The position numbers and the translations under genes are program-made. Below, one piece after another: positions 20,683 through 60,599 of a DNA stretch of 64,000 bases. The stretch lies in sequence record HE978309; one strand, written 5' to 3'. The notes beneath the pieces were generated by a model that was given only the letters and a program-made list of their open reading frames with translations, searched no databases and was not told the DNA's origin. Positions within the stretch are counted from its first letter, which is position 1. Each line of letters begins with the position of its first letter. Source of the DNA: Enterobacteria phage GEC-3S.

Positions 20683-20702
20683 GGGGAGTATTTACACTCC
20701 CC
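20683..20702 (-). other. hairpin GGGGAGU-N6-ACUCCCC between gp45 and gp44
   Basis: perfect 7-bp stem; same GGGRGTA/TACYCCC palindrome type seen at many promoters. Confidence 0.4.
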
Positions 20703-20714
20703 ACAAACATTATA

Positions 20715-21401
20715 TTAGTCGGTGTAGCTGGAGTCAAGGTCACACGCGATCATATAAGATACGGTTTCACTTGCCAGCCATACAGCCTTACGGCGAGTGA
20801 AGCTCAGTTTGTAATCGCCGAAGTCAGTAGCAACCAGTTTCATGTTATCTTTACGAATAAAGAAATGGAAGTCTGCGGTTCCGGTATATTCGCCCATATC
20901 AAGACAAAACATCTCATTAGGATTATTTTTGTCAATCTCTTCCCAACCTTTGATCATCAGACGACCATCAATCGGAAGAAATTCAAGGCGATCCACTTTA
21001 AGCTGATTGCTCATTTTCATAAGCTGTTTCAGATCGTCGTTGCTCAGTTCGTAATCTACATCGCTTGCAGGTGGAGTAACTCGGCCTTTCGGTGATACGA
21101 TAGCCGCAGCACTAGCACCAGGATAATTAATTTTCAGACGATCATTAGACACACGAATGTTTCCGGTTCGGTCATCAACCGTAATATCTGCTTCATCGCC
21201 TACCAGATTCAGAATACCCAGGAAAGAGTTAAGATCATAGATCCCAATTTCGTGTTCCAGTTCTTGATTCAGAGTCGCTTCACCATATACAACGTTTGTC
21301 ATGTTTTTGGTGATCAGGACGTTTCCTTTTTTCAGGATGATACCTGGGTTAATAGCGGAAAAGTTTTTCAGGGTAGCAATGGTTTCTTTAGTCAGTTTCA
21401 T
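20715..21401 (-). CDS. 45: sliding clamp
   Basis: 228 aa from ATG 21401 (MKLTKETIATLKNF...) with SD AAAGGTGA; track M1 is TTG. Confidence 0.85.
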   Translation of the reverse strand: MKLTKETIATLKNFSAINPGIILKKGNVLITKNMTNVVYGEATLNQELEHEIGIYDLNSFLGILNLVGDEADITVDDRTGNIRVSNDRLKINYPGASAAAIVSPKGRVTPPASDVDYELSNDDLKQLMKMSNQLKVDRLEFLPIDGRLMIKGWEEIDKNNPNEMFCLDMGEYTGTADFHFFIRKDNMKLVATDFGDYKLSFTRRKAVWLASETVSYMIACDLDSSYTD

Positions 21402-21431
21402 CAAATCACCTTTATCATGTTAATCAATTAA

Positions 21432-21809
21432 TTACGGGTTTACTTCGTGCTCATTTTGAATCTTTAGCATTCTTTCGATAAATTTTTTCTCGGCTTCCTT
21501 GTCGGATGAGTGAGTATACTTCAATCCAATGTAAGCTGTCAAGTATTGTTGCAGAGCATAGACAGTAACAGGATTCTTTGCGGTCTTTTTGCCATCGAGA
21601 TATACCAGATCACCACGAACATCAAACGCAAGTTTACGACGAATCACATCATCAACAAATTTATCTAGGACAAAATACCACTCAATACACTCTATCCCGT
21701 GACGGTAGTTCATTACATCATTATCTTTGATATAGTCAAACGGAATATGACATAATTTACTATTTTGTAGGATGAATAGCATTTGTTCTTTTAAGCTCAT
21801 ACGTTTCAT
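21432..21809 (-). CDS. hypothetical protein (about 125 aa; T4 rpbA position)
   Basis: start chosen at ATG 21809 with SD GGGAAGTGA; identity not established. Confidence 0.4.
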   Translation of the reverse strand: MKRMSLKEQMLFILQNSKLCHIPFDYIKDNDVMNYRHGIECIEWYFVLDKFVDDVIRRKLAFDVRGDLVYLDGKKTAKNPVTVYALQQYLTAYIGLKYTHSSDKEAEKKFIERMLKIQNEHEVNP

Positions 21810-21813
21810 TCTA

Positions 21814-22191
21814 TCACTTCCCATCAGCAATTGCGATCAGACGAGTTACTACTACGCTAGCGGCTTCAATCAGCAGTTCATCGGTGTCAATCTGATAACC
21901 CTTTTCGAGAATATCTTTACCTCGAATAGTTTTAGCGCCTTTAGCAATTGAATCATCGTAATACTTGCGCATTGTAGCGATCCATTCTTTTTGCACCATA
22001 TCATCAATATGCGCGTACAGTTCAAAACGTGCTTGCTGCGGGATAACCTTCATTTTAGCTTTCTCGCTTTCCGGCATTTGTAGTACCCACGCTTTACGGA
22101 TCTTGTTCATTGCTCGGTCAAATTCGAGGCTGGTTTTCTTGTTCTGAATGTCTGCTACAGTAATTTTAGCCAGGTTTGCGGAAGTAGTCAT
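21814..22191 (-). CDS. hypothetical protein (125 aa)
   Basis: ATG 22191 with SD GGAGA. Confidence 0.45.
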   Translation of the reverse strand: MTTSANLAKITVADIQNKKTSLEFDRAMNKIRKAWVLQMPESEKAKMKVIPQQARFELYAHIDDMVQKEWIATMRKYYDDSIAKGAKTIRGKDILEKGYQIDTDELLIEAASVVVTRLIAIADGK

Positions 22192-22221
22192 AATATTAAT
22201 CTCCAAAATAAAATCAGTATA

Positions 22222-22452
22222 TCACGTTCTAAAGTTTGTTGCAACCCCAGCATCAGGGTAATCAAGTTTATCTAAGTTGGGGACCAGCATAAACTCATGA
22301 TGACGACAAGACAACATTTTTGTTATGTCTTCATCGCTGTATATGCTGTTTTTCATATCCCCCATACTAACTACATATTCTTCACCGGAATATAGATTGA
22401 TTAAGGTATACAATTCTAACTCCGGCTGCGTTACTCTGTCAAATGTTAACAT
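22222..22452 (-). CDS. hypothetical protein (76 aa)
   Basis: ATG; overlaps gp46 stop. Confidence 0.45.
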   Translation of the reverse strand: MLTFDRVTQPELELYTLINLYSGEEYVVSMGDMKNSIYSDEDITKMLSCRHHEFMLVPNLDKLDYPDAGVATNFRT

Positions 22453-24121
22453 TCATTTCAGTGAATCGCCCACGTTTAACCATCTTGAGATGACGGCTAA
22501 AATCATCAGGGTTATGGTCACGATGGCTGATAATATACACGTTATCATCTAACTTGTCAATGATGGAATCAAGTGCTTTTACGCCTTGAACGTCCGTAGC
22601 CCCATCATAAATTTCGTCGAGTACCAACAAAGAAATATTAGTACCAGATACTTTACCAGCAACATCACGCCATGTAAAGAGCATCGCAAGGTCAATACGT
22701 GCTTTTTCGCCTTGACTGAATGATGTATACGAAAACGATTCACGCCCCCGTGATTTGATTGTTTCGTTAAACTCTTCATCTAGCGTAAAGATATAATCCG
22801 CTTCCATGATATCAAGATAATACGCAATCCGATCATTGAAATATGGAATATATTTCTTGACGATAGACGCCTTAACACCGGAATCCTTCAACATTTCTGT
22901 TACAAATCCACGGTGATATTTTTCAAGAACTAGCTTTGATTTTTCATTAGTAATCTCTACCAGTTCGTGTTCCAGTTTAGCAAGTTCTTCGGAATTGTCA
23001 ACCCTTTCTTTTTGGAATTCCTGAATTGCTTTCTGGATCTGTTTAGCCCGACCTACAGATGCCGTTAAATTCGCTCTCTGTGACTCTATAGCGCGTTTAA
23101 TTTCCAAGACCTTAGTTTGTGCTGTCTGGAAAGAATTGGCCTTCTCTGCGTATTCTACGCGTTTCTCGTCAATCAGAGACAGTTTATGTTCTGCTTGTGC
23201 TTTTTGTTCGCGTACAGCTTGATCATTACCTTGAATGATCGGTTGTGTGCACGTAGGACAGATCCCGCCTTTCTCATGCATATGAATAACGCGGTCAAAG
23301 TTCTGGATCTGCGCACCAATCTGTGCGATAGCCGTATTAATTTTAGCCAATGCCGCGCTAGGATCTTCCGGCATAACAACAGCCAATAGCTCATCGGTTA
23401 AGCGCGTTTCTTCGGCTTTAAATGCTTTAGCCGATTCTACCTCTTTATCATACATATTCTGTAAACGCTGGAGATTCTCGGCACTCGCCTTGCTAGCGTC
23501 TTCTATGTACTTTTTATGAGTGTTGATTTGTTGCTGAACGTGATTAGCTTTCATTTCCTGCATTTGGATATTCTGGGTAATCTCGCGCACATACGCTTTA
23601 TTCAGTTTATCCATTTCGCCTAGTGTAGCAATATCAAGCAAATCCTCGACCAGTTTACGGCGACCCGCTGCCGGAAGACTCATAAACGGAACATAACCAG
23701 CAGTGCCTAAAACAACGATCTGTTTAAAGCTGGCTAGGTTCATGCCTATGATACCTTCAAAATATTCCTGAAAGTCTTTGGTGCTTGCGCTCTCGTCGAT
23801 CTTTTGACCGTCTCGATGCACTTCGAATACTTCCGGCTTTTGTCCACGTTTAATATAAAATTCTTTCCCGTCCAGTTCAAACCAGACTTCGACTAACAGT
23901 TTCTTTTTGTTGACGCTGTTAATCAATTGGCCTTTCTTGATACTACGAAACGGTTTACCGAACAACACAAAGCAAAGCGCCTCGATCATGGTCGATTTAC
24001 CAGCACCGTTAACACCAGTGATTAGCGTCTTTTTGAATCCGTCTAGCTGAATCTCAACAGGTTCAGCACCCACGCTCATTATATTTTGATAGCGCAAGGT
24101 TTTAAAATTTAACTTTGCCAT
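22439..24121 (-). CDS. 46: recombination endonuclease subunit (Rad50/SbcC-like)
   Basis: 560 aa from ATG 24121 with SD GGAGTGG; Walker A GVNGAGKST, long coiled coil, C-terminal LVLDEIYDG. Confidence 0.9.
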   Translation of the reverse strand: MAKLNFKTLRYQNIMSVGAEPVEIQLDGFKKTLITGVNGAGKSTMIEALCFVLFGKPFRSIKKGQLINSVNKKKLLVEVWFELDGKEFYIKRGQKPEVFEVHRDGQKIDESASTKDFQEYFEGIIGMNLASFKQIVVLGTAGYVPFMSLPAAGRRKLVEDLLDIATLGEMDKLNKAYVREITQNIQMQEMKANHVQQQINTHKKYIEDASKASAENLQRLQNMYDKEVESAKAFKAEETRLTDELLAVVMPEDPSAALAKINTAIAQIGAQIQNFDRVIHMHEKGGICPTCTQPIIQGNDQAVREQKAQAEHKLSLIDEKRVEYAEKANSFQTAQTKVLEIKRAIESQRANLTASVGRAKQIQKAIQEFQKERVDNSEELAKLEHELVEITNEKSKLVLEKYHRGFVTEMLKDSGVKASIVKKYIPYFNDRIAYYLDIMEADYIFTLDEEFNETIKSRGRESFSYTSFSQGEKARIDLAMLFTWRDVAGKVSGTNISLLVLDEIYDGATDVQGVKALDSIIDKLDDNVYIISHRDHNPDDFSRHLKMVKRGRFTEMNVNI

Positions 24122-24365
24122 TAATCCACTCCGCAATCACACATTCCATAATATTAAATGCTAACACATCTTCATCAATGTTGTAAACACTTGCCGCCTT
24201 CACTTTAACTAGTGTGTCTCTGCGATCTGGCAGCATGATCACATAATCCAGTGTCGCAGGATCATATGTCATAAAGGGATCAACATAAATCCCTTTATTC
24301 AATGCCAGATATTCGCGAAGACCTTCTATAACCCTGTGTCTAAGGTAGGTCATCGATAGAATCAT
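24102..24365 (-). CDS. hypothetical protein (87 aa)
   Basis: ATGA overlap with upstream gene. Confidence 0.5.
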   Translation of the reverse strand: MILSMTYLRHRVIEGLREYLALNKGIYVDPFMTYDPATLDYVIMLPDRRDTLVKVKAASVYNIDEDVLAFNIMECVIAEWINGKVKF

Positions 24366-24922
24366 TTTAGTTTATGTTCCTCTAAAAATTCTTCAATTTC
24401 ACCTTGCAGGTCTTCCGCTTGCTGTTCCAGAATATCGCGAAATTCACCTACAGTCAAGCGGTGATCACATTTCACCAGACGATGTGGGAGAATATACCCT
24501 TTATACATTGTCTCTGACGCTTCCAGGAATACCCCACTATGCATGACAGAGATCCAACCTGTTAACGTCAATGGAGTATTCGGAAAATAATACTGGCTGG
24601 ATTGTTTCCACTGGACGAAAGCACCATACACAATAGGATTATATTCACCAACCACACTCTTAATAATGGATTCTACTTTGTCTTTTACAAAGTCGCCAAT
24701 GTCCATAGTTATCATCAACTCTTTTGGATTAATGATTTTAAGGTAACGACGGTAGCCGTCATCATACCACATCTTAACAACTGACCGATCAATATTCGCT
24801 TTCAGATAGCCATAGATCGGATTCTTGTAATATGATTGTTTTAGTGTGTATGTGTGCACCAATTTAATAAAATGTTCCATTACCAACAAATCAGAATCAG
24901 CCGCGACCATAGTCGTATTCAT
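24362..24922 (-). CDS. hypothetical protein (186 aa)
   Basis: start chosen at ATG 24922 with SD GAGGAA. Confidence 0.45.
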   Translation of the reverse strand: MNTTMVAADSDLLVMEHFIKLVHTYTLKQSYYKNPIYGYLKANIDRSVVKMWYDDGYRRYLKIINPKELMITMDIGDFVKDKVESIIKSVVGEYNPIVYGAFVQWKQSSQYYFPNTPLTLTGWISVMHSGVFLEASETMYKGYILPHRLVKCDHRLTVGEFRDILEQQAEDLQGEIEEFLEEHKLK

Positions 24923-25214
24923 AATATGTTCCTCGTTCAATCTCATATTGTTTCAGGTCTTCTAAAAGTTCATCCACTGCTTGTTTCAGCACATGACGCA
25001 GCGTAAAGTAATAGCTTTCATCAAATTCTATTTCCGCGCGAGGAATAGAACGAAACTTACACTTAACAGTAGTATCGGTGAGTCGCTTTTCGACCATCAT
25101 CCGAACTTCTTCATGCTCTTTGGAATACCATACATCAACGGAGATCCCCTTGCGTCGAGCAAACATAGGCAACGCTGCATTAAATTCCATTACTTTTTGT
25201 GCAAGTGTTTTCAT
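24897..25214 (-). CDS. hypothetical protein (105 aa)
   Basis: ATG; ATGA overlap. Confidence 0.5.
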   Translation of the reverse strand: MKTLAQKVMEFNAALPMFARRKGISVDVWYSKEHEEVRMMVEKRLTDTTVKCKFRSIPRAEIEFDESYYFTLRHVLKQAVDELLEDLKQYEIERGTYYEYDYGRG

Positions 25215-25462
25215 CGTACAGACCCCATAGATCCACGCGCAATAACATTCTGGGTAATATCAGCAACCTTACGGGATACGATGTTTGTTAGCCCCTCTTT
25301 GGTGATATTTTCACGATCAAATGGGATTTCGTCATGAGTCCACAAACCATAGTTAGACCGAAATGATAGCATATACTGACCATCTCGCACAACCTCAAAT
25401 ACATGGATCTTAGTGAATTTCGATAAACCTTCGTTGATTTCTTTCAGTGCATTAGTAATCAT
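25211..25462 (-). CDS. hypothetical protein (83 aa)
   Basis: ATG 25462 with SD GGAGG. Confidence 0.5.
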   Translation of the reverse strand: MITNALKEINEGLSKFTKIHVFEVVRDGQYMLSFRSNYGLWTHDEIPFDRENITKEGLTNIVSRKVADITQNVIARGSMGSVR

Positions 25463-25487
25463 AACAACCTCCAATCAATTTTTAGAG

Positions 25488-25516
25488 AGTATAACGGGGA
25501 TTTCTCCCCGCGTCAA
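25488..25516 (-). promoter_or_regulatory. early promoter (TTGACG-N17-TATACT); spacer is palindrome CGGGGA-GAAA-TCCCCG
   Basis: immediately after gp47 stop. Confidence 0.5.
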
Positions 25517-26542
25517 CTAACTTTTTGCGCTATTTACTTCGGCTAAAAGTTCATCAGAAATACGCTTGACCGCCGCAAGTTCTTCCGGTTCTAGGTTTTG
25601 TTCTTCCAGATATTCATAGACCATCTGAATAGTGCTTTTAACTTCAATAACACCTGTTTCCTGTGATGCGCTACTCTCCAGCTTATGGACCACTTTTAGC
25701 TTGTGTACAACGGCCTCTAACGCGCTTTCTAACTTACTTAACCCATTATCAGCAACCGTTGCGATAAGACGCACACTAAGCCCCTTAAAGCGTTCTACAT
25801 CGATTTTATCATCTGACGGGTAAGTGATACGCACATGATAAGTTTTATCATTCTGGATAAACTCTTTTTTGTGTGTATCGGTATCGAATACCCAAAAACC
25901 ACGCGGATCGTTTTCGTCACCCGCCGTTAGTGTGTATGGTGTACCAATATACGTTACGTTACCGCCATCGCTGATAGTATGAAAATGACCAGAAAACACT
26001 TCACGGTATTTCTTGAGGAAGTCCGCACTATAACCTTCGGATTTTAGCCCTTTATAGAAATAGTAACCGGACAATTCCCAATGGCCTACACAATATTCGC
26101 TGAATGAGTTTTGAATAAACTCTAAAATCTCTGATTTGTTATCATCACAAAACCACGGGAACAGATCAAATGATACACCATCAAAGGTAACTGTTTCCGG
26201 CTTATCAATAACTTTAATACAATCATACTGGCTTAACACTTCACGCGGTGCGTTAGGCTGGATCTTGTTTCGTTTAAACATATCATGATTTCCGACCGTG
26301 ATATAACAAGTAATACCAGCCTCTTCCAGTAGCGGGATGACCTTAGTACGGTTAAATTTCATTGTTTCATGAGTTATCGCCTTGCGGCAATCAAACCAAT
26401 CCCCTGTTTGAATCCATGTCTTAATATTATGCTCTTTGGAGTATTCAACCGCTTTCTTGATGGTATCAAGAATATACTCATGCACCCACGGATCATCGCC
26501 ACCGATACCAGTATGCAGATCACCTAAAAGCAAAATTTTCAT
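25517..26542 (-). CDS. 47: recombination endonuclease subunit (Mre11/SbcD-like)
   Basis: 341 aa; calcineurin-type phosphoesterase motifs GDLH, GDWFD, GNHD. Confidence 0.9.
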   Translation of the reverse strand: MKILLLGDLHTGIGGDDPWVHEYILDTIKKAVEYSKEHNIKTWIQTGDWFDCRKAITHETMKFNRTKVIPLLEEAGITCYITVGNHDMFKRNKIQPNAPREVLSQYDCIKVIDKPETVTFDGVSFDLFPWFCDDNKSEILEFIQNSFSEYCVGHWELSGYYFYKGLKSEGYSADFLKKYREVFSGHFHTISDGGNVTYIGTPYTLTAGDENDPRGFWVFDTDTHKKEFIQNDKTYHVRITYPSDDKIDVERFKGLSVRLIATVADNGLSKLESALEAVVHKLKVVHKLESSASQETGVIEVKSTIQMVYEYLEEQNLEPEELAAVKRISDELLAEVNSAKS

Positions 26543-26594
26543 AGTCTCTTCCTCTCTTCGTTTTCGATGCTCTCACTATATCACATAAAAATAA

Positions 26595-32935: not shown

Positions 32936-32964
32936 AGTATAGGGGATCTCGCGATCCCCGTCAA
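32936..32964 (-). promoter_or_regulatory. early promoter (TTGACG-N17-TATACT); spacer is palindrome GGGGATC-GCGA-GATCCCC
   Basis: minus-strand read. Confidence 0.5.
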
Positions 32965-34091: not shown

Positions 34092-34119
34092 ATTATACAT
34101 TAGCTAATCATGTTGTCAA
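34092..34119 (-). promoter_or_regulatory. early promoter (TTGACA-N16-TATAAT)
   Basis: directly downstream of terminator 34137-34156. Confidence 0.5.
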
Positions 34120-34136
34120 CACCCCAAAACGAAAAA

Positions 34137-34156
34137 GCCGACCCTTTCGGATCGGC
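34137..34156 (-). terminator. intrinsic terminator after nrdD
   Basis: GCCGAUCC-GAAA-GGGUCGGC then UUUUUCGUUUU on minus strand. Confidence 0.55.
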
Positions 34157-34162
34157 TGAAAA

Positions 34163-36565: not shown

Positions 36566-36595
36566 AATATAATCCTCTCGTTGTTAAGTGGGAGT

Positions 36596-36623
36596 ATTAT
36601 AGCATACTCCCTTCGCATGTCAA
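36596..36623 (-). promoter_or_regulatory. early promoter (TTGACA-N16-TATAAT); -10 inside GGGAGTA/TACTCCC palindrome
   Basis: minus-strand read. Confidence 0.55.
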
Positions 36624-37798: not shown

Positions 37799-37829
37799 AA
37801 TATAATCCTCTCGTTGTTTAGATGGGAGT

Positions 37830-37858
37830 ATCTTACTACTCCCGTTTCATCATGTCAA
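37830..37858 (-). promoter_or_regulatory. early promoter (TTGACA-N17-TAAGAT) inside GGGAGTAG/ACTCCC palindrome
   Basis: minus-strand read. Confidence 0.5.
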
Positions 37859-38708: not shown

Positions 38709-38739
38709 TGTTGATTCTCCTTCTTGATTAGATGGGAGC

Positions 38740-38768
38740 ATTTTACTACTCCCATTTCTTATTGTCAA
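38740..38768 (-). promoter_or_regulatory. early promoter (TTGACA-N17-TAAAAT) inside GGGAGTAG/GCTCCC palindrome
   Basis: minus-strand read. Confidence 0.5.
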
Positions 38769-39269: not shown

Positions 39270-39551
39270 TTAACCATTAATCTTGTTTTTGACTACAAAG
39301 GATCGGAACTCATCAAAACCACCGATATAATCACCATCATAGAAAATCTGCGGCATGGTGGCAATAACTTCTACCCCTGCGCGATCCTGAATATCGGCAA
39401 TGATAGAATCAATCTTTACCGGGCGACCGTTTTCGTCCACACCATCATTAACCGGAATGTAGATGTAAGGGATCTTACGCGCTTCACAAAGGCGCTTTGC
39501 ATTCTGGCAATACTTACAGTTGTAACCTTCAAAACCAAAAATTTCTACCAT
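39270..39551 (-). CDS. nrdC: thioredoxin/glutaredoxin (NrdC-like)
   Basis: 93 aa from ATG 39551 with SD GAGGT; CKYCQNAKRL redox motif; C-terminal PQIFYDGDYIGGFDEFR. Confidence 0.7.
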   Translation of the reverse strand: MVEIFGFEGYNCKYCQNAKRLCEARKIPYIYIPVNDGVDENGRPVKIDSIIADIQDRAGVEVIATMPQIFYDGDYIGGFDEFRSFVVKNKING

Positions 39552-39552
39552 G

Positions 39553-40308
39553 TTATACCTCATTCAGTTCTATATCAAGTTCATTTTCAATAATATAGGC
39601 ATTAACTGCCCGTGCCGCATCATCTTCTGTGTCAAATCTTCCTATATACACACCGCGAACTTTAGCACCGTAATTACCTTGTTTTGGTACTTTGTAAACG
39701 TATCTATGACGGGAACTTGCTGCTTTTTGGAGCTTCTTGCCATATTCAGACTTTGCATATTCTATATCATCAATCTCGTTTATACAAGACCTATCACCAA
39801 AATGTTTCAACGCTGCAAGATTATATGCATACGCCGCACCGATCTCGGAGGGAAAATATCCTAAATGTATAGACTTCCCATCCAACATTATTGCACCAGT
39901 CCAATAACCTTTATTCTTATTAAACGACACACCTTTATACTTCGAATATGTTTTGCATTTGGTCTTGCTCATATTCATATTATTTTGTTTGCTTGTCGTC
40001 TCTCTAAGGTTTTCAATGCGGCTATTATAACGATCTCGGTCTTTATGATCTATATACTTAGGACAATGACCATGAAACATATGATAGATAACACGGTGCA
40101 TACGTTCGTATCGCTCGCCAGTCCATACAATACGATACCCATCGGGGGTATCACTTCCAGCTAATCCGTTTATAACACCTTTTCGGTGCGGGTGAATCTT
40201 CCACCTAAGAAAACCATCATCATAATAAAACCGTGAATGATATAAATCATATAAACGTTTATCTTCTGGAGTCTTGTGTATAACCTCATATTTTAACATT
40301 GGTGACAT
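39553..40308 (-). CDS. HNH homing endonuclease with AP2-type DNA-binding domains
   Basis: 251 aa; HNH core IDHKDRDRYNSRIENLR; two AP2-like segments; overlaps both neighbours. Confidence 0.7.
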   Translation of the reverse strand: MSPMLKYEVIHKTPEDKRLYDLYHSRFYYDDGFLRWKIHPHRKGVINGLAGSDTPDGYRIVWTGERYERMHRVIYHMFHGHCPKYIDHKDRDRYNSRIENLRETTSKQNNMNMSKTKCKTYSKYKGVSFNKNKGYWTGAIMLDGKSIHLGYFPSEIGAAYAYNLAALKHFGDRSCINEIDDIEYAKSEYGKKLQKAASSRHRYVYKVPKQGNYGAKVRGVYIGRFDTEDDAARAVNAYIIENELDIELNEV

Positions 40309-41101
40309 AAACTTCCTTAGTATCGGATTTTTTACCCCCGCTACGATCTAAACAATATGTTTTATCCAGTTCAACAACAGAAACATCATTACGTTCGATA
40401 AAATCAAGCAAATGGTTGTTAACTTTCCCTTTGTGGTGAGTAACATTGCTTAATCCAAACTTAGCACCGCTAGACATTAATGATTCTATCCACATGTAGA
40501 ATTTAATCTCTTCTTCTTCACTCCAGAACTTATTATATTCTGCCGACGTGATCCAATATGGCGGATCAAGGAAAACGAAATCACCTGGCAAGATCTCGAT
40601 CTCGTCATAGCGACCAGACGTAAAACTGATTCGACCGTCTTTGTTTTCTTCCTTAAAATTCAGGACACGCTCTACCGCGTTTTCGTTAAAAGTCCGGCGA
40701 CCAAAATTAGCATTAAATTCTCCCTTTCGGTTATGGCGGTTAATGTTGCTAAAACTGTGCTGAATCAACACAAACAGCGATAGCGGATCTGGATTCTCGT
40801 TATACTTCTTACGGAATGTCATGTAAGCGTCTTTATCTTCGCGAGACAAACCATTTTCGGCAATAATACGCTTGATCGTAGAAACCGGATCAGGACACTC
40901 GTCAATCGCTTTGTACGCGTCAATTAAGCGGTGATCATAGTCATTAGCCAGCACATCACCTTCGACGTACAGAGACACGCTCAAGCCTCCACAGAAGGCA
41001 TCAACAAAGCGGTTATAGCGCTTAGGGAAATACTTACTAACACCTGGCAATAGCTTTTCCTTATTGCCAGTATAGGGAATTAAACCTAATGCTTTCTTCA
41101 T
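40286..41101 (-). CDS. dam: DNA adenine methyltransferase
   Basis: 271 aa; motif I FVDAFCGGLSV and motif IV DPPY; close to T4 Dam sequence. Confidence 0.9.
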   Translation of the reverse strand: MKKALGLIPYTGNKEKLLPGVSKYFPKRYNRFVDAFCGGLSVSLYVEGDVLANDYDHRLIDAYKAIDECPDPVSTIKRIIAENGLSREDKDAYMTFRKKYNENPDPLSLFVLIQHSFSNINRHNRKGEFNANFGRRTFNENAVERVLNFKEENKDGRISFTSGRYDEIEILPGDFVFLDPPYWITSAEYNKFWSEEEEIKFYMWIESLMSSGAKFGLSNVTHHKGKVNNHLLDFIERNDVSVVELDKTYCLDRSGGKKSDTKEVYVTNVKI

Positions 41102-42659: not shown

Positions 42660-42693
42660 AATATAATCCTCACATCGTTCATTTGATGCGGTT

Positions 42694-42722
42694 ATTATAG
42701 GATAACCGCATTTTCATGTCAA
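42694..42722 (-). promoter_or_regulatory. early promoter (TTGACA-N17-TATAAT)
   Basis: minus-strand read. Confidence 0.5.
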
Positions 42723-43327: not shown

Positions 43328-43369
43328 TTTGATTCTCCTTAAGAAAGTGTGTTTCGTTTTGATGTGTTT

Positions 43370-43398
43370 AGTATAGGGGATACGTGATCCCCTGTCAA
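43370..43398 (-). promoter_or_regulatory. early promoter (TTGACA-N17-TATACT); spacer palindrome GGGGAT-ACGTG-ATCCCC
   Basis: minus-strand read. Confidence 0.5.
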
Positions 43399-45653: not shown

Positions 45654-45681
45654 ATTATAGCATTGTGATTATCTTTGTCAA
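45654..45681 (-). promoter_or_regulatory. early promoter (TTGACA-N16-TATAAT)
   Basis: directly downstream of terminator 45699-45718. Confidence 0.5.
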
Positions 45682-45698
45682 CACCCAAAAACAAAAAA

Positions 45699-45718
45699 GG
45701 CTACCCCGAAGGATAGCC
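45699..45718 (-). terminator. intrinsic terminator after the glycine-rich gene
   Basis: GGCUAUCC-UUCG-GGGUAGCC + UUUUUUGUUUUU on minus strand. Confidence 0.55.
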
Positions 45719-45725
45719 CATAAAA

Positions 45726-55691: not shown

Positions 55692-55907
55692 TTATTTTCC
55701 TTTTCTCTGTTTACGTTTATAAAAGTAATACATTACCTCATCACATCCGGTGATCCAACATGCTATGGCAGTAAACAGGTTTACAATTCCCAACACACCT
55801 ACTGACGCGGCGCTGTCAACAGACATAGGAACAGTAAAGGCCATAGCTAACATAGCAACGCCACAAATGACATTAAGCACCATTATAATAAGACCGAAGA
55901 AAACCAT
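55692..55907 (-). CDS. small membrane protein (71 aa)
   Basis: start at ATG 55907 behind SD GGAGGA. Confidence 0.45.
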   Translation of the reverse strand: MVFFGLIIMVLNVICGVAMLAMAFTVPMSVDSAASVGVLGIVNLFTAIACWITGCDEVMYYFYKRKQRKGK

Positions 55908-55909
55908 TG

Positions 55910-56089
55910 TCAATCCTCCGACACAAGAAAACCAACAATCACGCCAGTGATAAGACATGATGCGCCGCTAATCAGACAACCCGCACCAAGTGATTCCCAC
56001 CAGATCAGAGAAGCGACAATAACACAGAATCCCCATACTACCGCAATCACAACATAGGCAAGGGTCGCCCAAAACATATATTTGTTCAT
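55910..56089 (-). CDS. small membrane protein (59 aa)
   Basis: start at ATG 56089, ATGA-coupled. Confidence 0.45.
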   Translation of the reverse strand: MNKYMFWATLAYVVIAVVWGFCVIVASLIWWESLGAGCLISGASCLITGVIVGFLVSED

Positions 56090-56274
56090 AATAAATCCCA
56101 TTCACCAAACAAATAAGAAAAAAGCCATATCAACAGAAACGAGGCAATTGATCCGGCAAGCAAAATGATATTAGAGAATCCGCCGTCTATCCAGGCGACA
56201 AAACAGAATACGCCAGTATAGAAGCATAAACCCATTACAAAGCATACTATAAGCAACCATAGACAAAACTCCAT
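56086..56274 (-). CDS. small membrane protein (62 aa)
   Basis: ATG with SD GGAGGG. Confidence 0.5.
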   Translation of the reverse strand: MEFCLWLLIVCFVMGLCFYTGVFCFVAWIDGGFSNIILLAGSIASFLLIWLFSYLFGEWDLL

Positions 56275-56335
56275 AGAAAGCCCTCCATCGAGATAAATTA
56301 GTACGGGTAGGGGACTGCACTACCCGCTTTGTTAA

Positions 56336-56494
56336 TCAACGCAGAGCTTCTTCTAGCGCGATCCCAAACCATCCACAAACAACGCCCATACAGACAGCTA
56401 CAAGAAGATTCATTCTCTCTTTAGGGATCATTGCAATCATAACAACAACCATACAGAAAGCCATTACCATTGATGTTAACATTTGTTCAACCAT
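56336..56494 (-). CDS. small membrane protein (52 aa)
   Basis: hand-read MVEQMLTSMVMAFCMVVVMIAMIP...; SD AAGGTG; not in track. Confidence 0.4.
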   Translation of the reverse strand: MVEQMLTSMVMAFCMVVVMIAMIPKERMNLLVAVCMGVVCGWFGIALEEALR

Positions 56495-56496
56495 TA

Positions 56497-56829
56497 TCAC
56501 ACCTTTAAAGTCATAGACGCATAAACATTAATGCCAGGCCAGTTAGGATCGCAATTATACTCAACATCCCACAAATAAAGCGGTTTAGATGTATCAGCCA
56601 AGTTTTTAAAATCTTCTACCCACATTTCAAGGCTATATGATGGATAAACTAGGCTATCATATCCGCCGTAACGTTGGCCTACTGGTCGGTCAGTAAAAAC
56701 TACCTCAAGATCCGGTAATTCTTTTTCAAGGATAACCGCCAGCGCATAAATCAGACGGTCTTCCTTGTTACGCTGCCGAAGGACCGTTGTCAGTTGGTTT
56801 TTCTGGTTCACTAGCAAGCACCTCCACAT
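56497..56829 (-). CDS. hypothetical protein (110 aa; possible frameshifted continuation of upstream ORF)
   Basis: no SD at its ATG; overlaps upstream ORF by about 62 nt in the +1 frame. Confidence 0.35.
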   Translation of the reverse strand: MWRCLLVNQKNQLTTVLRQRNKEDRLIYALAVILEKELPDLEVVFTDRPVGQRYGGYDSLVYPSYSLEMWVEDFKNLADTSKPLYLWDVEYNCDPNWPGINVYASMTLKV

Positions 56830-57088
56830 TTTCACAGAATGAAATTTTCACAGACACAATTTTACCATAAGTGAAGAATGAATATACATTATCGAGATAT
56901 TCAACGTCACCTACAATCACATCAAACTGCGGATCAGCCACTGCCGCAACATATTCTACCAGTTCATCAAGAGAATGCAACTTAATTTCATCAATTCGGC
57001 TGTATTTGGTTGCATCTTTGATTTTAAAACCACGTTCTTTCAGCTTATCAATTAGAATTTCACGCGGAGTTTCAAACAGTTTGCTCAT
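56768..57088 (-). CDS. hypothetical protein (106 aa)
   Basis: ATG with SD GTGAGGATTATATT. Confidence 0.45.
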   Translation of the reverse strand: MSKLFETPREILIDKLKERGFKIKDATKYSRIDEIKLHSLDELVEYVAAVADPQFDVIVGDVEYLDNVYSFFTYGKIVSVKISFCENVEVLASEPEKPTDNGPSAA

Positions 57089-57109
57089 AATATAATCCTC
57101 ACATTAAAT

Positions 57110-57307
57110 CTAAAATTTGTTAACGACGAATTGCATAATTAGACTAATCACAAACATTGCAAACCAAGTATAAATGCAACAGATAAAAGCTACATACAAT
57201 TCAATCTGGTCAGAGAATACACCGGGTAAAAGCATTAGCAAAATAAAAACAGTAAAGACGCTAGCGATACCCGCAACAAAACCAATATCATTTTTACTAA
57301 TCGTCAT
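57110..57307 (-). CDS. small membrane protein (65 aa)
   Basis: ATG 57307, ATGA-coupled. Confidence 0.45.
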   Translation of the reverse strand: MTISKNDIGFVAGIASVFTVFILLMLLPGVFSDQIELYVAFICCIYTWFAMFVISLIMQFVVNKF

Positions 57308-57516
57308 CAAGTCACCGTTTTGTAAAGAAACACAATAAAATCCAAGACAAGAAAGACAGTGTAAATGATCATCGTCAAGACAGTAAACATTGTCAAATTT
57401 TCATCGTTAGTTAATTCATAGTCGCCCATCCATACAATCACAAGATATAGCATTGAAAGAATGGAAGCACCTACGAAGTTAAAAAACATATTCTTGAGCG
57501 TCATATTAACAACCAT
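57307..57516 (-). CDS. small membrane protein (69 aa; start may be 57504)
   Basis: two TM helices. Confidence 0.45.
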   Translation of the reverse strand: MVVNMTLKNMFFNFVGASILSMLYLVIVWMGDYELTNDENLTMFTVLTMIIYTVFLVLDFIVFLYKTVT

Positions 57517-57688
57517 CGCGGCTTAAGTCAACAGCAATTGCATACAGCATAATGAATATGCTAGCAGATCCAAGAATCAATACACCCTCACATTTTGAAA
57601 CTCGCTCATCAAAATGTAACATTATCCATCCGAGGATGTTAAAGGCGCAGACCGCGCCTATGTTCGCTAACCAATTAATCTTTTTCAT
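57506..57688 (-). CDS. small membrane protein (60 aa)
   Basis: ATG with SD TAAGGTA. Confidence 0.45.
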   Translation of the reverse strand: MKKINWLANIGAVCAFNILGWIMLHFDERVSKCEGVLILGSASIFIMLYAIAVDLSRDGC

Positions 57689-57696
57689 AATATACC

Positions 57697-58023
57697 TTAG
57701 AAAGAAACAGTTTTCAAGAAATCCAGATTTTCAGTACCGAAAACAGAAAAGTAGTGTTTTCCTTTTTCGGTTTTAGAGAAAGCGATTGTCTTCTCTACAT
57801 GGTGACGGAAGCCCGACAGACGATCACCCAGGTCAAGGCGGCAAGCGTAAGTAGTGCCGTTTTCGAAAGTAACCTCGATTTGAGTTTTGTCATATTCGCT
57901 TTCATAGGCTTTTGCTGCCGCGTCCTGTGCTTTACGCTCGAAGTCTTCGAAGTGGAATACTTCGTTTGCGTTAGCGAATACAGAAGATTCAGAGAAGATA
58001 ACTTTAACAGATACTGGTTTCAT
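57697..58023 (-). CDS. hypothetical protein (108 aa)
   Basis: leader AAGGAGTATCAAAATG. Confidence 0.5.
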   Translation of the reverse strand: MKPVSVKVIFSESSVFANANEVFHFEDFERKAQDAAAKAYESEYDKTQIEVTFENGTTYACRLDLGDRLSGFRHHVEKTIAFSKTEKGKHYFSVFGTENLDFLKTVSF

Positions 58024-58065
58024 TTTGATACTCCTTAGTAGTTCGTGTTTCGTTTCGATGGGTGT

Positions 58066-58094
58066 ATTATGCTATACACCCTCTCGCGTGTCAA
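58066..58094 (-). promoter_or_regulatory. early promoter (TTGACA-N17-CATAAT) inside GGGTGTAT/ATACACCC palindrome
   Basis: followed by leader CATCGAAACGAAACAC. Confidence 0.55.
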
Positions 58095-58102
58095 CAACTT
58101 TT

Positions 58103-58291
58103 TTAGTCTTTTTTCATAATTTCTAGAGCAGTTTCTACAGCACCTTTCCAACCCTCCCACATAATGGACATAGTAATGAAGTTAAAGCACCCGCAGGAAT
58201 CAACCTTTTTAGAGATAAACCATTCTACAAACGCTTCGCTCATACCATGCTCTTTAGCGGATTCGCGTAATTGTTCAATTTGGTCTTCCAT
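58103..58291 (-). CDS. hypothetical protein (62 aa)
   Basis: SD GAGGTGA. Confidence 0.45.
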   Translation of the reverse strand: MEDQIEQLRESAKEHGMSEAFVEWFISKKVDSCGCFNFITMSIMWEGWKGAVETALEIMKKD

Positions 58292-58300
58292 AGTATCACC

Positions 58301-58489
58301 TCAACACTTAACGTTATTCAAACGATTTTGAAAGTACATATAGCAAGCATAATTTTGTTTTGGCTGTACCGTATCAGATAAGCACGCTTTTACAGCCTCG
58401 CGGTCCGATGGATCTACGCCCTCAGCGTTAAGCAATGCTAAGATCTGATAATAGCGTACTCTCAGTTGCGTTAATGGTTTCTCTCCCAT
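58301..58489 (-). CDS. hypothetical protein (62 aa)
   Basis: start at ATG 58489 behind SD GGAGGG. Confidence 0.45.
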   Translation of the reverse strand: MGEKPLTQLRVRYYQILALLNAEGVDPSDREAVKACLSDTVQPKQNYACYMYFQNRLNNVKC

Positions 58490-58501
58490 AAAACCCTCCA
58501 A

Positions 58502-58729
58502 TTAAAGTTGTTCTGCAATGTATGCGGTGCATTTACGGAGTTTAGCCATCGCACCACCTTTCATGTCGCTTGCACCTACAAGGTTCATGATCTCTAAGCG
58601 GTCAGTCGGATTCAGTCTAGTAGCCCAGATCTGGTTAGCCAGTTCCATTTTACCCATCTGCGGTTCCATCTCAAACAGTTCGCGCTCAAAGTCGATAATT
58701 TCTTTTGCTGCGTCTTTAAAGTTAATCAT
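58502..58729 (-). CDS. hypothetical protein (75 aa)
   Basis: leader GGGAGAATCAAAATG. Confidence 0.45.
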   Translation of the reverse strand: MINFKDAAKEIIDFERELFEMEPQMGKMELANQIWATRLNPTDRLEIMNLVGASDMKGGAMAKLRKCTAYIAEQL

Positions 58730-58758
58730 TTTGATTCTCCCGTTTCGTTGATGGTTGT

Positions 58759-58787
58759 ATTGTAGGGGAGTTATCCTCCCCTGTCAA
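58759..58787 (-). promoter_or_regulatory. early promoter (TTGACA-N17-TACAAT); spacer palindrome GGGGAG-GATAA-CTCCCC
   Basis: minus-strand read. Confidence 0.5.
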
Positions 58788-58795
58788 CACTTTTA

Positions 58796-58981
58796 TCAGA
58801 AATATGCAATATAGTTTGCCAGTCCTACAGAGTCATCATTCGGCATTGCTTTTACTGCCAGTTCAAACCCTGCTTCAACTTTCTGTTTAGCGGATTCTTC
58901 GTTATAACCCCAGATTACCAGAATAGCTACTACGTTTTCTTTGCTTACTGCTTTCAGTGCTTTAGTGATGCGACGTGCCAT
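58796..58981 (-). CDS. hypothetical protein (61 aa)
   Basis: leader GGAGAATCAAATTATG. Confidence 0.45.
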   Translation of the reverse strand: MARRITKALKAVSKENVVAILVIWGYNEESAKQKVEAGFELAVKAMPNDDSVGLANYIAYF

Positions 58982-59027
58982 AATTTGATTCTCCGTTTAA
59001 GAAAGTGTGTTTCGTTTCGATGGGTGT

Positions 59028-59056
59028 ATTATGCTATAGGCCGGATCTGGTGTCAA
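59028..59056 (-). promoter_or_regulatory. early promoter (TTGACA-N17-CATAAT)
   Basis: directly downstream of terminator 59090-59107. Confidence 0.5.
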
Positions 59057-59089
59057 CAACTTTTTTAAAAAATTTTAGGCAATAAAAAA

Positions 59090-59107
59090 GCCACTCCGAA
59101 GAGTGGC
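59090..59107 (-). terminator. intrinsic terminator with UUCG tetraloop
   Basis: GCCACUC-UUCG-GAGUGGC + UUUUUUAUU on minus strand. Confidence 0.65.
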
Positions 59108-59245
59108 TTATAGGGAAGGTAGCGAATCTTCCTTGTCTCCAACCTGCTAGCGGCCTAGCAAGTGAATGCTTTAGCGTACCGGATCGCCCACATACGCTGT
59201 AATAAATGCGGCTAGGTGACGTCCAAATCATTCTAACCGCGCTGT
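59108..59245 (-). ncRNA. candidate small non-coding RNA (about 135 nt) from late-type promoter to intrinsic terminator
   Basis: TATAAATA at 59250-59257 then hairpin-rich sequence ending in the terminator; the only ORF here runs through promoter and terminator. Confidence 0.35.
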
Positions 59246-59249
59246 CTTT

Positions 59250-59257
59250 AGTTCACT
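59250..59257 (-). promoter_or_regulatory. T4 late promoter core TATAAATA (exact consensus)
   Basis: immediately after stop of ORF 59259-59477. Confidence 0.4.
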
Positions 59258-59258
59258 A

Positions 59259-59477
59259 TTATTTATATCGCTTTCTCTCGCGACGTTTTTGATCTTCTTC
59301 CTTGATAGAGTTAAATGCATCAAAAAGACACATGACACTGATAATGAACATAACCGTATTTTCTACGATATCCCACGGCTTCGCATCAGTACAGATCCCC
59401 CAAACGGTAAGAAATGCAAATAAGGCAGAAGAGATCACAAGCATGATACTTGCTAAGATATAAAAAGTCATTTTCAT
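59259..59477 (-). CDS. small membrane protein (72 aa)
   Basis: ATGA-coupled. Confidence 0.45.
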   Translation of the reverse strand: MKMTFYILASIMLVISSALFAFLTVWGICTDAKPWDIVENTVMFIISVMCLFDAFNSIKEEDQKRRERKRYK

Positions 59478-59656
59478 GGTTTTACCTCAATTCTTCGATA
59501 TTCATCACACATCCACGCAGTAAGCAAGAATCCCAACACATAAGCAACAAAATACGTTAATGCTTCTTCTGGTTCGGTGCTATGCGCCATCATCAGACCA
59601 GCGAGAAAGGTCTTAACAATTACATTTAAAATAATTAGCCACGCAAATAATTTCAT
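59474..59656 (-). CDS. small membrane protein (60 aa)
   Basis: start at ATG 59656, ATGA-coupled. Confidence 0.45.
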   Translation of the reverse strand: MKLFAWLIILNVIVKTFLAGLMMAHSTEPEEALTYFVAYVLGFLLTAWMCDEYRRIEVKP

Positions 59657-59877
59657 CGTTTGCCCCATTTCGGACGAGTCTTTTCAAACTTATACATTAC
59701 GCAACAATCTCGAATCATCCACGTAACAAGAGCACCAGTCAACACAGACAACACACAGAAGAAGTAAAACGGTCCGGTTGCATTATCAACATGAGCAAGC
59801 CATGTAAAGAAAACACATGCAAGGAATGTAAAGAACATCATAAAACACAAGAAAGCAAAATATTTTATGCTACTCAT
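59653..59877 (-). CDS. small membrane protein (74 aa)
   Basis: start at ATG 59877, ATGA-coupled. Confidence 0.45.
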   Translation of the reverse strand: MSSIKYFAFLCFMMFFTFLACVFFTWLAHVDNATGPFYFFCVLSVLTGALVTWMIRDCCVMYKFEKTRPKWGKR

Positions 59878-59984
59878 AGCGCCACCATACAACAGATCAT
59901 AAGAAAACCCAACGCAATAAGAATTGCATCAAATTTAGTGAACTCCGGTCCACCTATCAACATCATTCGTTCCTGTTCAGTCAT
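59874..59984 (-). CDS. possible small membrane peptide (36 aa)
   Basis: hand-read; ATGA overlaps at both ends; not in track. Confidence 0.3.
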   Translation of the reverse strand: MTEQERMMLIGGPEFTKFDAILIALGFLMICCMVAL

Positions 59985-60178
59985 AGATCACAGAGCCATC
60001 TTAAAGCACCACATAAAGCGAGCAGAATACTAGGTATAAACGAGATCAAAACAAGTTGGCAAAAATCATCTAAGGTAACACCGGAATAGCTACCTACTGT
60101 AACAACACCGATCATCAGACACAGAAAGAAAACAAATGCAACCAGAAACAAAGTATTGCTAAACAGTTTAGTGATCAT
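59981..60178 (-). CDS. small membrane protein (65 aa)
   Basis: start chosen at ATG 60178 with SD GGGGTG. Confidence 0.4.
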   Translation of the reverse strand: MITKLFSNTLFLVAFVFFLCLMIGVVTVGSYSGVTLDDFCQLVLISFIPSILLALCGALRWLCDL

Positions 60179-60371
60179 TAGACACCCCACGACGATCAAT
60201 TTCAAAAACTTTTTTATCATCAACGAAGCATGTCACAACTGCCTCGTTGACTTCCGCAAATTGTTGTGTTACCCACTTAAGGTCAGAGCGAAACAATGTT
60301 CTATTAATAACAAATGCTTTACCGATCTTATCCTTACCCATAAATTTTGCTTTAACCATATCCAATTCCAT
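60168..60371 (-). CDS. dmd: Dmd-like antitoxin (inhibitor of RnlA/LsoA-type toxins)
   Basis: 67 aa; MEL..V.F.G...K...D..W.TQQFAEVN.A.V..FVDDKKV.E.D.RG pattern matches T4 Dmd as I recall it. Confidence 0.45.
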   Translation of the reverse strand: MELDMVKAKFMGKDKIGKAFVINRTLFRSDLKWVTQQFAEVNEAVVTCFVDDKKVFEIDRRGVSNDH

Positions 60372-60380
60372 ATTATCACC

Positions 60381-60539
60381 TTATTTGCTAATCGCTAAAC
60401 CCAATCCGAAGAGAGCACCCGATGCTACAGTATACCCGAAAGTTTCAAATGCAGTAAAGATATCTAAGCCACCAGCTAACAGAGTTGCAGTAAACAGAGT
60501 ACCAGCTACGAACATAAAAGTTTTACCGATAAATTTCAT
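60381..60539 (-). CDS. small membrane protein (52 aa)
   Basis: hand-read; leader GGAGAATCAAAATG; not in track. Confidence 0.4.
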   Translation of the reverse strand: MKFIGKTFMFVAGTLFTATLLAGGLDIFTAFETFGYTVASGALFGLGLAISK

Positions 60540-60570
60540 TTTGATTCTCCTTTCGTTTGTTTGTGGGGGT

Positions 60571-60599
60571 ATCTTACTACCCCCGTTTCATGTTGTCAA
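60571..60599 (-). promoter_or_regulatory. early promoter (TTGACA-N17-TAAGAT) inside GGGGGTAG/ACCCCC palindrome
   Basis: minus-strand read. Confidence 0.5.

Follow-up and report, generated by a model that had tools for sequence, protein, structure and literature searches.

The DNA under study, a stretch of 64,000 nucleotides of Enterobacteria phage GEC-3S (sequence record HE978309), referred to below as the window, carries recurrent palindromes fused to sigma-70 promoters, and these are the known promoter-early stem-loop (PeSL) cassettes of RB49-type phages, the hairpin of which most likely acts on RNA arriving from the upstream gene. The element itself was described and named in 2010 for RB49 and phi1, each of which has about 50 PeSLs (Arbiol et al. 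2010, Genome Biol Evol 2:140, PMC2839356). The published subclasses include stems "overlapping the -10 box" and "between -35 and -10", and G-T pairs in the stems were noted (PMC2839356). For RB49/phi1, Comeau et al. 2014 (PMC4122927) later gave "GN-loop-CN" as the stem and TTGACA-N17-TATAAT as the promoter. The present analysis adds to this account statistics on orthologues, a sense-strand bias towards G.U pairs, the mutual exclusivity of embedded stems and upstream terminators, and the lack of a U-tract behind most stems.

Megablast searches with three segments of the window identified 57 GenBank phage records as its relatives, all belonging to Krischvirus, with 94-99% identity and nearly full coverage. 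This genus comprises RB49-like T4-type coliphages and Shigella phages, and RB49, phi1 and JSE are among the relatives. In the RB49 and phi1 annotation essentially all genes of the corresponding region occupy the minus strand, in the series dda ... 43, regA, 62, 44, 45, 46, 47, 55, nrdG, nrdD, 49, nrdC, dam, tk, regB, dmd, and the palindromes are therefore to be read on that strand. The cassettes are positionally orthologous to those of RB49 and phi1, as 350-nt queries returned matches of 89-100% identity at the same gene junctions. They display the features that characterise a PeSL, namely a near-consensus promoter, a fused G-run/C-run stem-loop, an intergenic site, dispersed repetition beside small genes and positional orthology.

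Read on the minus strand, the sites with a palindrome around the -10 are near-consensus sigma-70 early promoters, TTGACA-N16-18-TAnnAT, fused to a GC-rich stem of 7-8 bp with a 6-nt loop. The 5' arm lies in the spacer and the 3' arm forms the C-rich discriminator, ending at -1. The copies listed by a sequence-only reading of positions 20,683 to 60,599 match the consensus hexamers at 10-12 of 12 positions, and most carry aaaaagt(t/a)g ahead of the -35. Over the whole window, five placements of the stem were recognised (in the spacer, over the -10, over the -35, upstream and downstream), and folding free energies range from -9 to -21 kcal/mol across the copies. The copies are as follows, all on the minus strand.

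60565..60599 (-): -10-wrapping; -35 TTGACA 60594-60599, -10 TAAGAT 60571-60576, hairpin GGGGGTA/TACCCCC 60565-60584 (7 bp, 6-nt loop).
58060..58094 (-): -10-wrapping; -35 58089-58094, -10 CATAAT 58066-58071, hairpin GGGTGTAT/ATACACCC 58060-58081; absent from the sequence-only reading.
52702..52737 (-): -10-wrapping; -35 52732-52737, -10 TAATAT 52708-52713, hairpin GGGGGTA/TACCCCC 52702-52721 (7 bp, 6-nt loop).
42687..42722 (-): -10-wrapping with different arms; -35 42717-42722, -10 TATAAT 42694-42699, hairpin (T)GCGGTTAT/ATAACCGC(A) 42687-42710.
38732..38768 (-): -10-wrapping; -35 38763-38768, -10 TAAAAT 38740-38745, hairpin ATGGGAGTA/TGCTCCCAT 38732-38755.
37824..37858 (-): -10-wrapping; -35 37853-37858, -10 TAAGAT 37830-37835, hairpin GGGAGTA/TACTCCC 37824-37843 (7 bp, 6-nt loop).
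36590..36623 (-): -10-wrapping; -35 36618-36623, -10 TATAAT 36596-36601, hairpin GGGAGTAT/ATACTCCC 36590-36611 (8 bp, 6-nt loop).
2798..2832 (-): -10-wrapping; -35 2827-2832, -10 CATAAT 2804-2809, hairpin GGGGATAT/ATATCCCC 2798-2819; outside the range of the sequence-only reading.
3162..3202 (-): promoter 3202, TTGACA-N16-TATAAT; 13-bp stem 3162-3193 with the -10 as its loop; likewise outside that range.
58764..58787 (-): spacer class, TTGACA-GGGGAG gataa CTCCCC-TACAAT; palindrome 58764-58782.
43375..43398 (-): spacer class, TTGACA-GGGGAT cacgt ATCCCC-TATACT; palindrome 43375-43393.
32942..32964 (-): spacer class, TTGAC-GGGGATC gcga GATCCCC-TATACT; palindrome 32942-32959; the stem includes the last base of the -35.
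25494..25516 (-): spacer class, TTGACG-CGGGGA gaaa TCCCCG-TTATACT; palindrome 25494-25511.
15927..15982 (-): downstream class, promoter 15982; 12-bp stem 15927-15955 starting from the last base of the -10, just after gene 43.
9609..9661 (-): downstream class with a canonical terminator, promoter 9661; 5' arm GCCTCC at -6..-1, 3' arm GGAGGC followed by TTTTTT.
18686..18720 (-): -35-wrapping class, promoter 18711; arms ATAGGGG...CCCCTAT around the -35 and spacer, with a long loop, weak.
20681..20737 (-): gp45-gp44 gap; TTGACT-N17-TATAAT 20709-20737, 6 nt further on the hairpin (T)GGGGAGT gtaaat ACTCCCC(A) 20681-20704, then TTTTAAT.

Examples of the -10-wrapping arrangement are promoters 36623 (TTGACAtgcgaaGGGAGTATgcTATAATACTCCC), 37858 (TTGACAtgatgaaacGGGAGTAgTAAGATACTCCC) and 60599 (TTGACAacatgaaacGGGGGTAgTAAGATACCCCC). 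Each copy occupies a gap of 54-103 nt between minus-strand open reading frames (ORFs). In three cases (36620-36622, 37855-37857 and 2829-2831, all on the minus strand) the TGA stop of the upstream ORF lies inside the -35 TTGACA, so that about 40 nt hold the stop codon, the promoter, the hairpin and the start of transcription. The 38732-38755 hairpin can be drawn either as 7 perfect base pairs with a 10-nt loop or, if one U.G pair is allowed, as 9 bp around a 6-nt loop. The stem at 3162-3193 (arms AAGGGAGAUUCUC and GGGAGUCUCCCUU, -20.7 kcal/mol) has a 6-nt loop that is exactly TATAAT and is followed by the T-rich tail UUUCUUUU (also given as TTTCTTTT). Most cassettes adjoin hypothetical ORFs and a few stand beside gene 43, nrdD or regB, in line with the published description (PMC2839356); the one at 52702..52737, as judged by its coordinate offset to the RB49 record, lies upstream of the ORF095-regB pair. 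The cassettes are dispersed, a 3.5-kb query matching 3-5 places per genome.

All six palindromes listed by the sequence-only reading are present at the positions it gave and are perfect inverted repeats, save for one U.G pair in the longer stem at 38768. The positions 36596, 37830, 38740, 52708 and 60571 correspond to the last bases of the minus-strand -10 hexamers. The spacer variants that it described, GGGGAT/ATCCCC and GGGGAG/CTCCCC, were recovered at 43375-43393, 32942-32959 and 58764-58782, together with a CGGGGA/TCCCCG form at 25494-25511. Its placement of the -10 in the loop is accurate in part, as the loop holds five of the six bases in 7-bp stems and four in 8-bp stems, the remainder belonging to the 3' arm. 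The listed members of the family are real, and members with other arms had been missed, namely GGGTGTAT at 58060-58081, GCGGTTAT at 42687-42710, GGGGATAT at 2798-2819 and the stem at 3162-3193.

The palindromes are no chance pattern. The motif GGGRGTA-N6-TACYCCC occurs three times in the window and not once in 100 shuffles. An embedded hairpin of -10 kcal/mol or below (-10 to -14) is present in 12 of the 25 intergenic minus-strand promoters that make up the promoter set, while none of the 63 promoter-like matches inside genes, used as controls, folds at -8 kcal/mol or below. Every embedded hairpin outfolds 300 of 300 shuffles in which both hexamers were held fixed, and the hairpins stay the dominant structure in a 66-nt context, with z-scores of -2.8 to -4.9.

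Selection acts on the pairing. The half-sites differ among the copies yet stay complementary, and at least seven are found (GGGAGTA, GGGGGTA, GGGTGTAT, GCGGTTAT, GGGGATAT, GGGGATC and CGGGGA among them). The 7-bp and 8-bp stems were analysed separately on structure-registered alignments; a joint MAFFT alignment of both had aligned on the -10, with the structural register broken, and was discarded. The 7-bp group is 100% paired, one pair running through AU, GC and GU. In the 8-bp group, which is 99% paired, three pairs are changed on both sides (GC/CG/UG, GC/AU/UA and GC/UA/UG/AU), the covariation score was reached by 0 of 500 shuffles and slid registers all fall to 30-76% pairing.

Orthologues of each site were retrieved by flanking homology only, regardless of pairing, from 5-20 related genomes or contigs per site; they were taken record by record from GenBank, protein-anchored searches having given just 3 loci in IMG/VR and 4 in metagenome contigs. 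Variable columns amount to 11 of 143 in the stems, as compared with 10 of 28 in the loop outside the -10 and 19 of 82 in the other spacer and discriminator positions (stem versus the two other groups combined, Fisher p = 9e-5). The 43398 site displays several loop sequences and no stem change in 16-17 orthologues. The stem at 60565-60584 is identical in 8 orthologues, and that at 58060-58081 in 6 while the adjoining spacer varies, one genome having rewritten seven bases beside the stem. The U.G pair of 38732-38755 is U-A in most orthologues. The sequence-only reading had named covariation of stem positions, across copies and related phages, as one property on which its proposal would stand or fall; covariation was found, and its suggestion of a DNA/RNA structure beyond the promoter consensus is borne out, as a selected structure, by stems that covary and are conserved in orthologues while loops and spacer vary.

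The changes within the stems are not symmetrical between the strands, most of them being G.U wobbles on the sense strand. Stem transitions yield a U.G pair on the sense strand at six pairs and an A.C pair at none (one-sided p = 0.016); three of the U.G pairs belong to the 42722 site, as independent variants, and one each to 38768, 36623 and 46851. The observed intermediate between GGGAGTA/TACTCCC and GGGGGTA/TACCCCC is likewise G.U. This asymmetry points to a single-stranded sense-strand molecule, either RNA or the non-template DNA strand. A palindrome in duplex DNA would not yield G.U without A.C, and the asymmetry therefore counts against a DNA-protein site.

The position of the stem relative to the transcription start site suggests which RNA would carry it. 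The early-promoter logo of RB49 has C at -3..-1 and is reported to agree with mapped 5' ends (Nolan et al. 2006, PMC1524935), and the start position used here rests on the description of that logo. With the 3' arm ending at -1, the cassette's own RNA is therefore predicted to lack the hairpin. On our reading, for 16 of the 17 promoters that bear a stem, the downstream class included, transcription is predicted to start within the hairpin or past it. Each module begins with A-rich DNA, followed by a near-consensus promoter for host sigma-70 that comes into use immediately after infection, a fused hairpin, a conserved short leader and a Shine-Dalgarno sequence; as its own RNA would start past the hairpin, the hairpin would exist only in read-through RNA from the upstream gene. 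There it most likely defines where the upstream transcription unit has its 3' end, through attenuation or termination or as a block to 3' exonucleases. Small early-gene cassettes would in this way be insulated from one another, with terminator and promoter compacted into about 35 bp, and the roughly 70-100 bp of conserved cassette sequence also provides homology at scattered sites through which genes may be shuffled. As published, the proposal has the stem-loop terminate or attenuate upstream transcription, which the promoter then restarts, and makes the cassette a recombination substrate for gene shuffling and mini-circle formation (PMC2839356).

The distribution of separate terminators agrees with a function of this kind. 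Of the 12 promoters with no embedded stem, 5 have a separate canonical terminator directly upstream, and of the 13 with such a stem none does (Fisher p = 0.015); the two look like alternative arrangements. The five stem-less cases are listed below.

61018..61083 (-): stem-less promoter 61046; separate canonical terminator upstream, 61063-61083 (stem and T-run).
59028..59109 (-): stem-less promoter 59056; canonical terminator upstream, 59088-59109.
48065..48133 (-): stem-less promoter 48093; canonical terminator upstream, 48106-48133.
45654..45719 (-): stem-less promoter 45681; canonical terminator upstream, 45698-45719.
34092..34157 (-): stem-less promoter 34119; canonical terminator upstream, 34136-34157.

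The heuristic hairpin-plus-tail score, a rough guide with coefficients after d'Aubenton-Carafa et al. 1990, is mostly positive for the hairpins upstream of stem-less promoters and for the gp45-gp44 hairpin. In an intrinsic terminator the nascent RNA folds, where a gene ends, into a GC-rich hairpin; 3162-3193, 9609-9632, 20681-20704 and the hairpins upstream of stem-less promoters fit this type fully. The stem at 3162-3193 is an unambiguous intrinsic terminator wrapped around a -10, and the clearest such case. In published reporter assays, the PeSL211/210 stem-loop cut the expression of downstream lacZ about as much as rrnB T1, and a wild-type PeSL206/205 clone drove about 13,000 Miller units (PMC2839356). 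The phi1 counterpart of the assayed PeSL211/210 stem is of the spacer class (TTGACAGGGGATCggtGATCCCCTTATAAT).

Several observations weigh against an action of the hairpin on upstream RNA, or against parts of that reading. The published terminator assay is limited to one spacer-class stem (PMC2839356), and termination by the -10-wrapping subclass is therefore an extrapolation; by analogy, the -10-wrapping stems may terminate like the assayed one. An intrinsic terminator has a U-rich tract immediately behind its hairpin, and the -10-wrapping and spacer stems are devoid of it: their tails are AUCGAAAC, AUCUAAAC or UAUACU, and the first 8 nt on the sense strand contain 0-4 T. A consensus terminator scan flags none of these stems, and their heuristic score is negative on both strands. 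The covariation alignments of the 7-bp and 8-bp groups consist of sets selected for pairing, which is why the orthologues were also retrieved by flanking homology alone, and the count of G.U pairs is small. Pairing is not without exceptions. A few terminal-pair mismatches occur, and in an ECD7-like contig two stem-breaking C>A changes at the 37858 site imply that the stem is dispensable there. The contig in question, a 164,706 bp IMG/VR sequence, carries TACTACA in place of the TACTCCC 3' arm in its orthologue of 37824-37843, with both promoter hexamers intact, and this variant could serve as a ready-made mutant for the function of the stem.

The sequence-only reading had proposed that GGAG-containing hairpins are targets of the RegB nuclease, and this reading of the stems, that they are cleavage sites of the endoribonuclease, deserves hardly any credence. 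In its favour are the GGGAG or GGGGAG of some arms and the presence of regB. GGAG is, however, found in just 6 of 13 embedded stems, being missing from the other seven (GGGGGTA, GGGTGTAT, GCGGTTAT, GGGGAT); where present it is base-paired, with UAGUAAG or GAUAAC as its 3' context rather than the unpaired, A-rich setting of a RegB site, and the hairpin lies outside the cassette's own leader. According to a RegB review, secondary structure protects RNA from the enzyme and strong sites follow the consensus GGAGRAYARAA. It is the leader that resembles the RegB/S1 sites of T4 early mRNAs: the Shine-Dalgarno region GGAGAATCAAA, 20-35 nt downstream of the hairpin, matches that consensus at 10 of 11 positions and is part of the first leader type (...AGGAGAATCAAAATG), found in 12 of 25 cassettes. 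A second type, ...GAGAGGATTATATTATG, lacks GGAG and occurs at 36623 and 37858, with the close variants GTGAGGATTATATT at 42722 and GAGAGGACAAC at 34119 (example leaders, across types, are 60540-60565, 43328-43365 and 36566-36590). As judged from these sequences, the two types suggest RegB-sensitive and RegB-insensitive early genes, and RegB, if it acts on the cassettes, would do so 20-35 nt downstream of the hairpin. A possible, though rather unlikely, explanation is a variant of the best one with a different molecular step: the hairpin would be no terminator but would hold up 3' exonucleases, and so stabilise the upstream cistron, once read-through RNA has been cut further downstream, for example by RegB in the GGAG Shine-Dalgarno 20-35 nt on, or by RNase E. 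Stems without a U-tract that score as non-terminators, the RegB-like GGAGAATCAAA shortly downstream of the hairpin in 12 of 25 cassettes, the regB gene in this region of the window and the sense-strand G.U bias, which fits a role in RNA, are all consistent with such a barrier. Against it stand the strong drop in downstream expression caused by a spacer-class stem in the reporter assay (PMC2839356) and the GAGAGGAT/GTGAGGAT leaders, without GGAG, of the three neighbouring copies 36623, 37858 and 42722. A fuller form, in which RegB/S1 cuts read-through RNA at GGAGAATCAAA, the hairpin 20-35 nt upstream halts 3' exonucleases and the -10-wrapping stems lacking a U-tract are no intrinsic terminators at all, is quite unlikely to be the correct one; if true, this two-part module would process polycistronic early RNA to monocistronic units that are stable, with the downstream cistron inactivated on that RNA. 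As a weaker variant, RNA polymerase parked on the overlapping promoter may, together with the hairpin, release read-through polymerases without the help of a U-tract.

Explanations at the level of DNA fare less well. A GC-rich spacer and discriminator, or a cruciform, might tune open-complex formation, promoter escape or the response to supercoiling. The 3' arm is indeed the C-rich -6..-1 discriminator, which is C-rich in stem-less copies too (GCACAC, GCTCAC) and generally so among RB49 early promoters (PMC1524935), and the stems form in single-stranded DNA during sequencing reactions (PMC2839356). We nevertheless regard such a role as very unlikely, since it is pairing and not sequence that is conserved, the preference for G.U over A.C is unexpected for duplex or cruciform DNA, the stem takes five different positions relative to the promoter, and stem-less copies with separate terminators look equally good promoters. 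In addition, cruciform extrusion would generally call for longer arms than the 7-8 bp, with 6-nt loops, of these stems. An operator for a dimeric DNA-binding protein that switches the early promoters, as the sequence-only reading had also proposed, is highly improbable. The dyad symmetry centred on the -10 would suit it, and a few minutes into infection the early promoters of T4-type phages are switched off, in a way that the RegB review describes as incompletely understood; an operator would, however, keep a conserved half-site at a fixed position, while the half-sites differ widely and covary to keep pairing, the stem shifts between classes and its substitutions are strand-asymmetric, loop and spacing positions drift freely, and a palindrome is absent from about half of the early promoters of equal strength. 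The cruciform and operator readings were thus rejected on covariation and positional variability. The last alternative, that the hairpins stop antisense transcripts, made from the plus strand, on their way into the early region, has a negligible probability. Several plus-strand tails are T-richer, such as CGTTTTGTTGTG after 52702-52721, and the TB34 record annotates the orthologue of 38768 as a plus-strand terminator. Plus-strand scores nevertheless stay below the heuristic threshold, the wobble variants become A.C on the plus strand (taking the 38768 stem from -10.4 to -5.7 kcal/mol) and nearly all genes here are on the minus strand; wobble asymmetry and sub-threshold scores led to its rejection. 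The sequence-only interpretation was thus partly right, in that the palindromes are a selected structure, which is neither a protein operator nor a RegB target, and an action on RNA from the upstream gene accounts best for the evidence.

The copy in the gp45-gp44 gap departs from the -10-wrapping arrangement. Its inverted repeat (20682-20703) has 8-bp arms and a 6-nt loop, which the sequence-only reading had taken to hold a -10. The loop GTAAAT is not a sigma-70 -10, and the promoter TTGACT-N17-TATAAT lies upstream, with 6 nt between its -10 and the stem. The loop and the next base, GTAAATA (with the preceding T, TGTAAATA), constitute a "hypothetical late promoter" in the RB49 record. With a stem downstream of the -10 and a U-rich tail, UUUUAAU, it scores as a weak terminator. 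Most plausibly this hairpin serves as an attenuator between genes 45 and 44. Its arrangement still fits the "downstream" class of PeSLs and is no instance of a -10 in the loop.

The annotation of these sites in GenBank is inconsistent. The TB34 record (OX001802.1) labels orthologous hairpins, at locus 6733-6760 and others, as plus-strand "terminator" features, although the genes run along the other strand, and so places terminators on the wrong strand, while the Makalu_003 record annotates only canonical upstream hairpins, on the minus strand. Rfam covariance models detected no family at gathering score anywhere in the window, which means merely that PeSLs are outside Rfam. At 52702-52722 and 60565-60585 the G-run of the 5' arm has 5 or 6 G between genomes while the C-run is fixed (orthologues in RB49, phi1 and the genomes labelled L007, L008 and L051), which looks like a polymorphism caused by slippage at the foot of the stem. 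In IMG/VR, the pattern TTGACA-N9-GGGNGTA-N6-TACNCCC was matched by Krischvirus contigs and by about 20 marine or freshwater contigs; the latter have a GNRA loop without a -10 and were set aside as a different element. These unrelated environmental viral contigs (L023-L031, L033-L038, L040, L042 and L047; GC 34-38%) carry a single copy of TTGACAtaatcatgcGGGGGTAAgcaaTTACCCCCaacct, with an 8-bp stem, a GCAA tetraloop and -14.7 kcal/mol, and the element is outside the PeSL family. Six of these contigs were scanned for an adjoining tRNA and none had one; a single contig was compared with Rfam and gave no credible match.

Two further features of the window were recorded. A gene for an HNH homing endonuclease, at about 39550-40310 (-) between nrdC and dam, is shared with ELT3, PHB13, pEJ01, KMB43, Sf20 and phiS and is missing from RB49, phi1, the MIZ phages and others; its presence or absence explains the query coverage of 100% or 89% among the relatives. 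A lone plus-strand ORF of 84 amino acids (63302-63556 (+)) is convergent with a minus-strand gene, and between the two lies a 9-bp GC-rich hairpin at 63562-63582, AAGCCCGTC aat GACGGGCTT, with T-runs on both flanks, which is likely a bidirectional terminator.

As a discovery these results carry little weight, the element having been named in the very phages that the window resembles. They provide a validated example of a reader that, from sequence alone, spotted a real and selected structure. They also expose a gap in the published account: the claim of "effective terminators" rests on one spacer-class stem, and the commonest class, which wraps the -10, has no U-tract. If such stems insulate by another route, they would offer compact promoter/insulator parts for synthetic biology and would help to explain why, in T4-type phages, genes next to a swapped-in one stay undisturbed.

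Compared with the PeSLs of RB49 and phi1, the cassettes of the window belong to the same genus and occupy orthologous intergenic sites. They have the same AT-rich upstream region, TTGACA-N17-TATAAT promoter, G-run/C-run stem-loop, Shine-Dalgarno sequence and subclasses; there is no essential difference, the window being a different isolate that is 94-99% identical. The PeSLs of T4/PST and KVP40/nt-1 are likewise composites of promoter and stem-loop that flank variable early genes in T4-type phages (PMC4122927). In PST, the stem-loop is located just upstream of the promoter, unlike the -10-wrapping stems described here; the stem consensus is AGNA-loop-TCNT in PST/T4 and A3-4G3-loop-C3T3-4 in nt-1/KVP40, and the promoters deviate from the sigma-70 consensus (PMC4122927). 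The "morons" of lambdoid phages resemble PeSL cassettes in being self-contained expression units, where an accessory gene is insulated by a promoter and a terminator of its own. According to the authors of the PeSL study (PMC2839356), the moron flanks are neither conserved repeats nor thought to mediate mobility, in contrast with PeSLs, where promoter and hairpin are fused and repeated.

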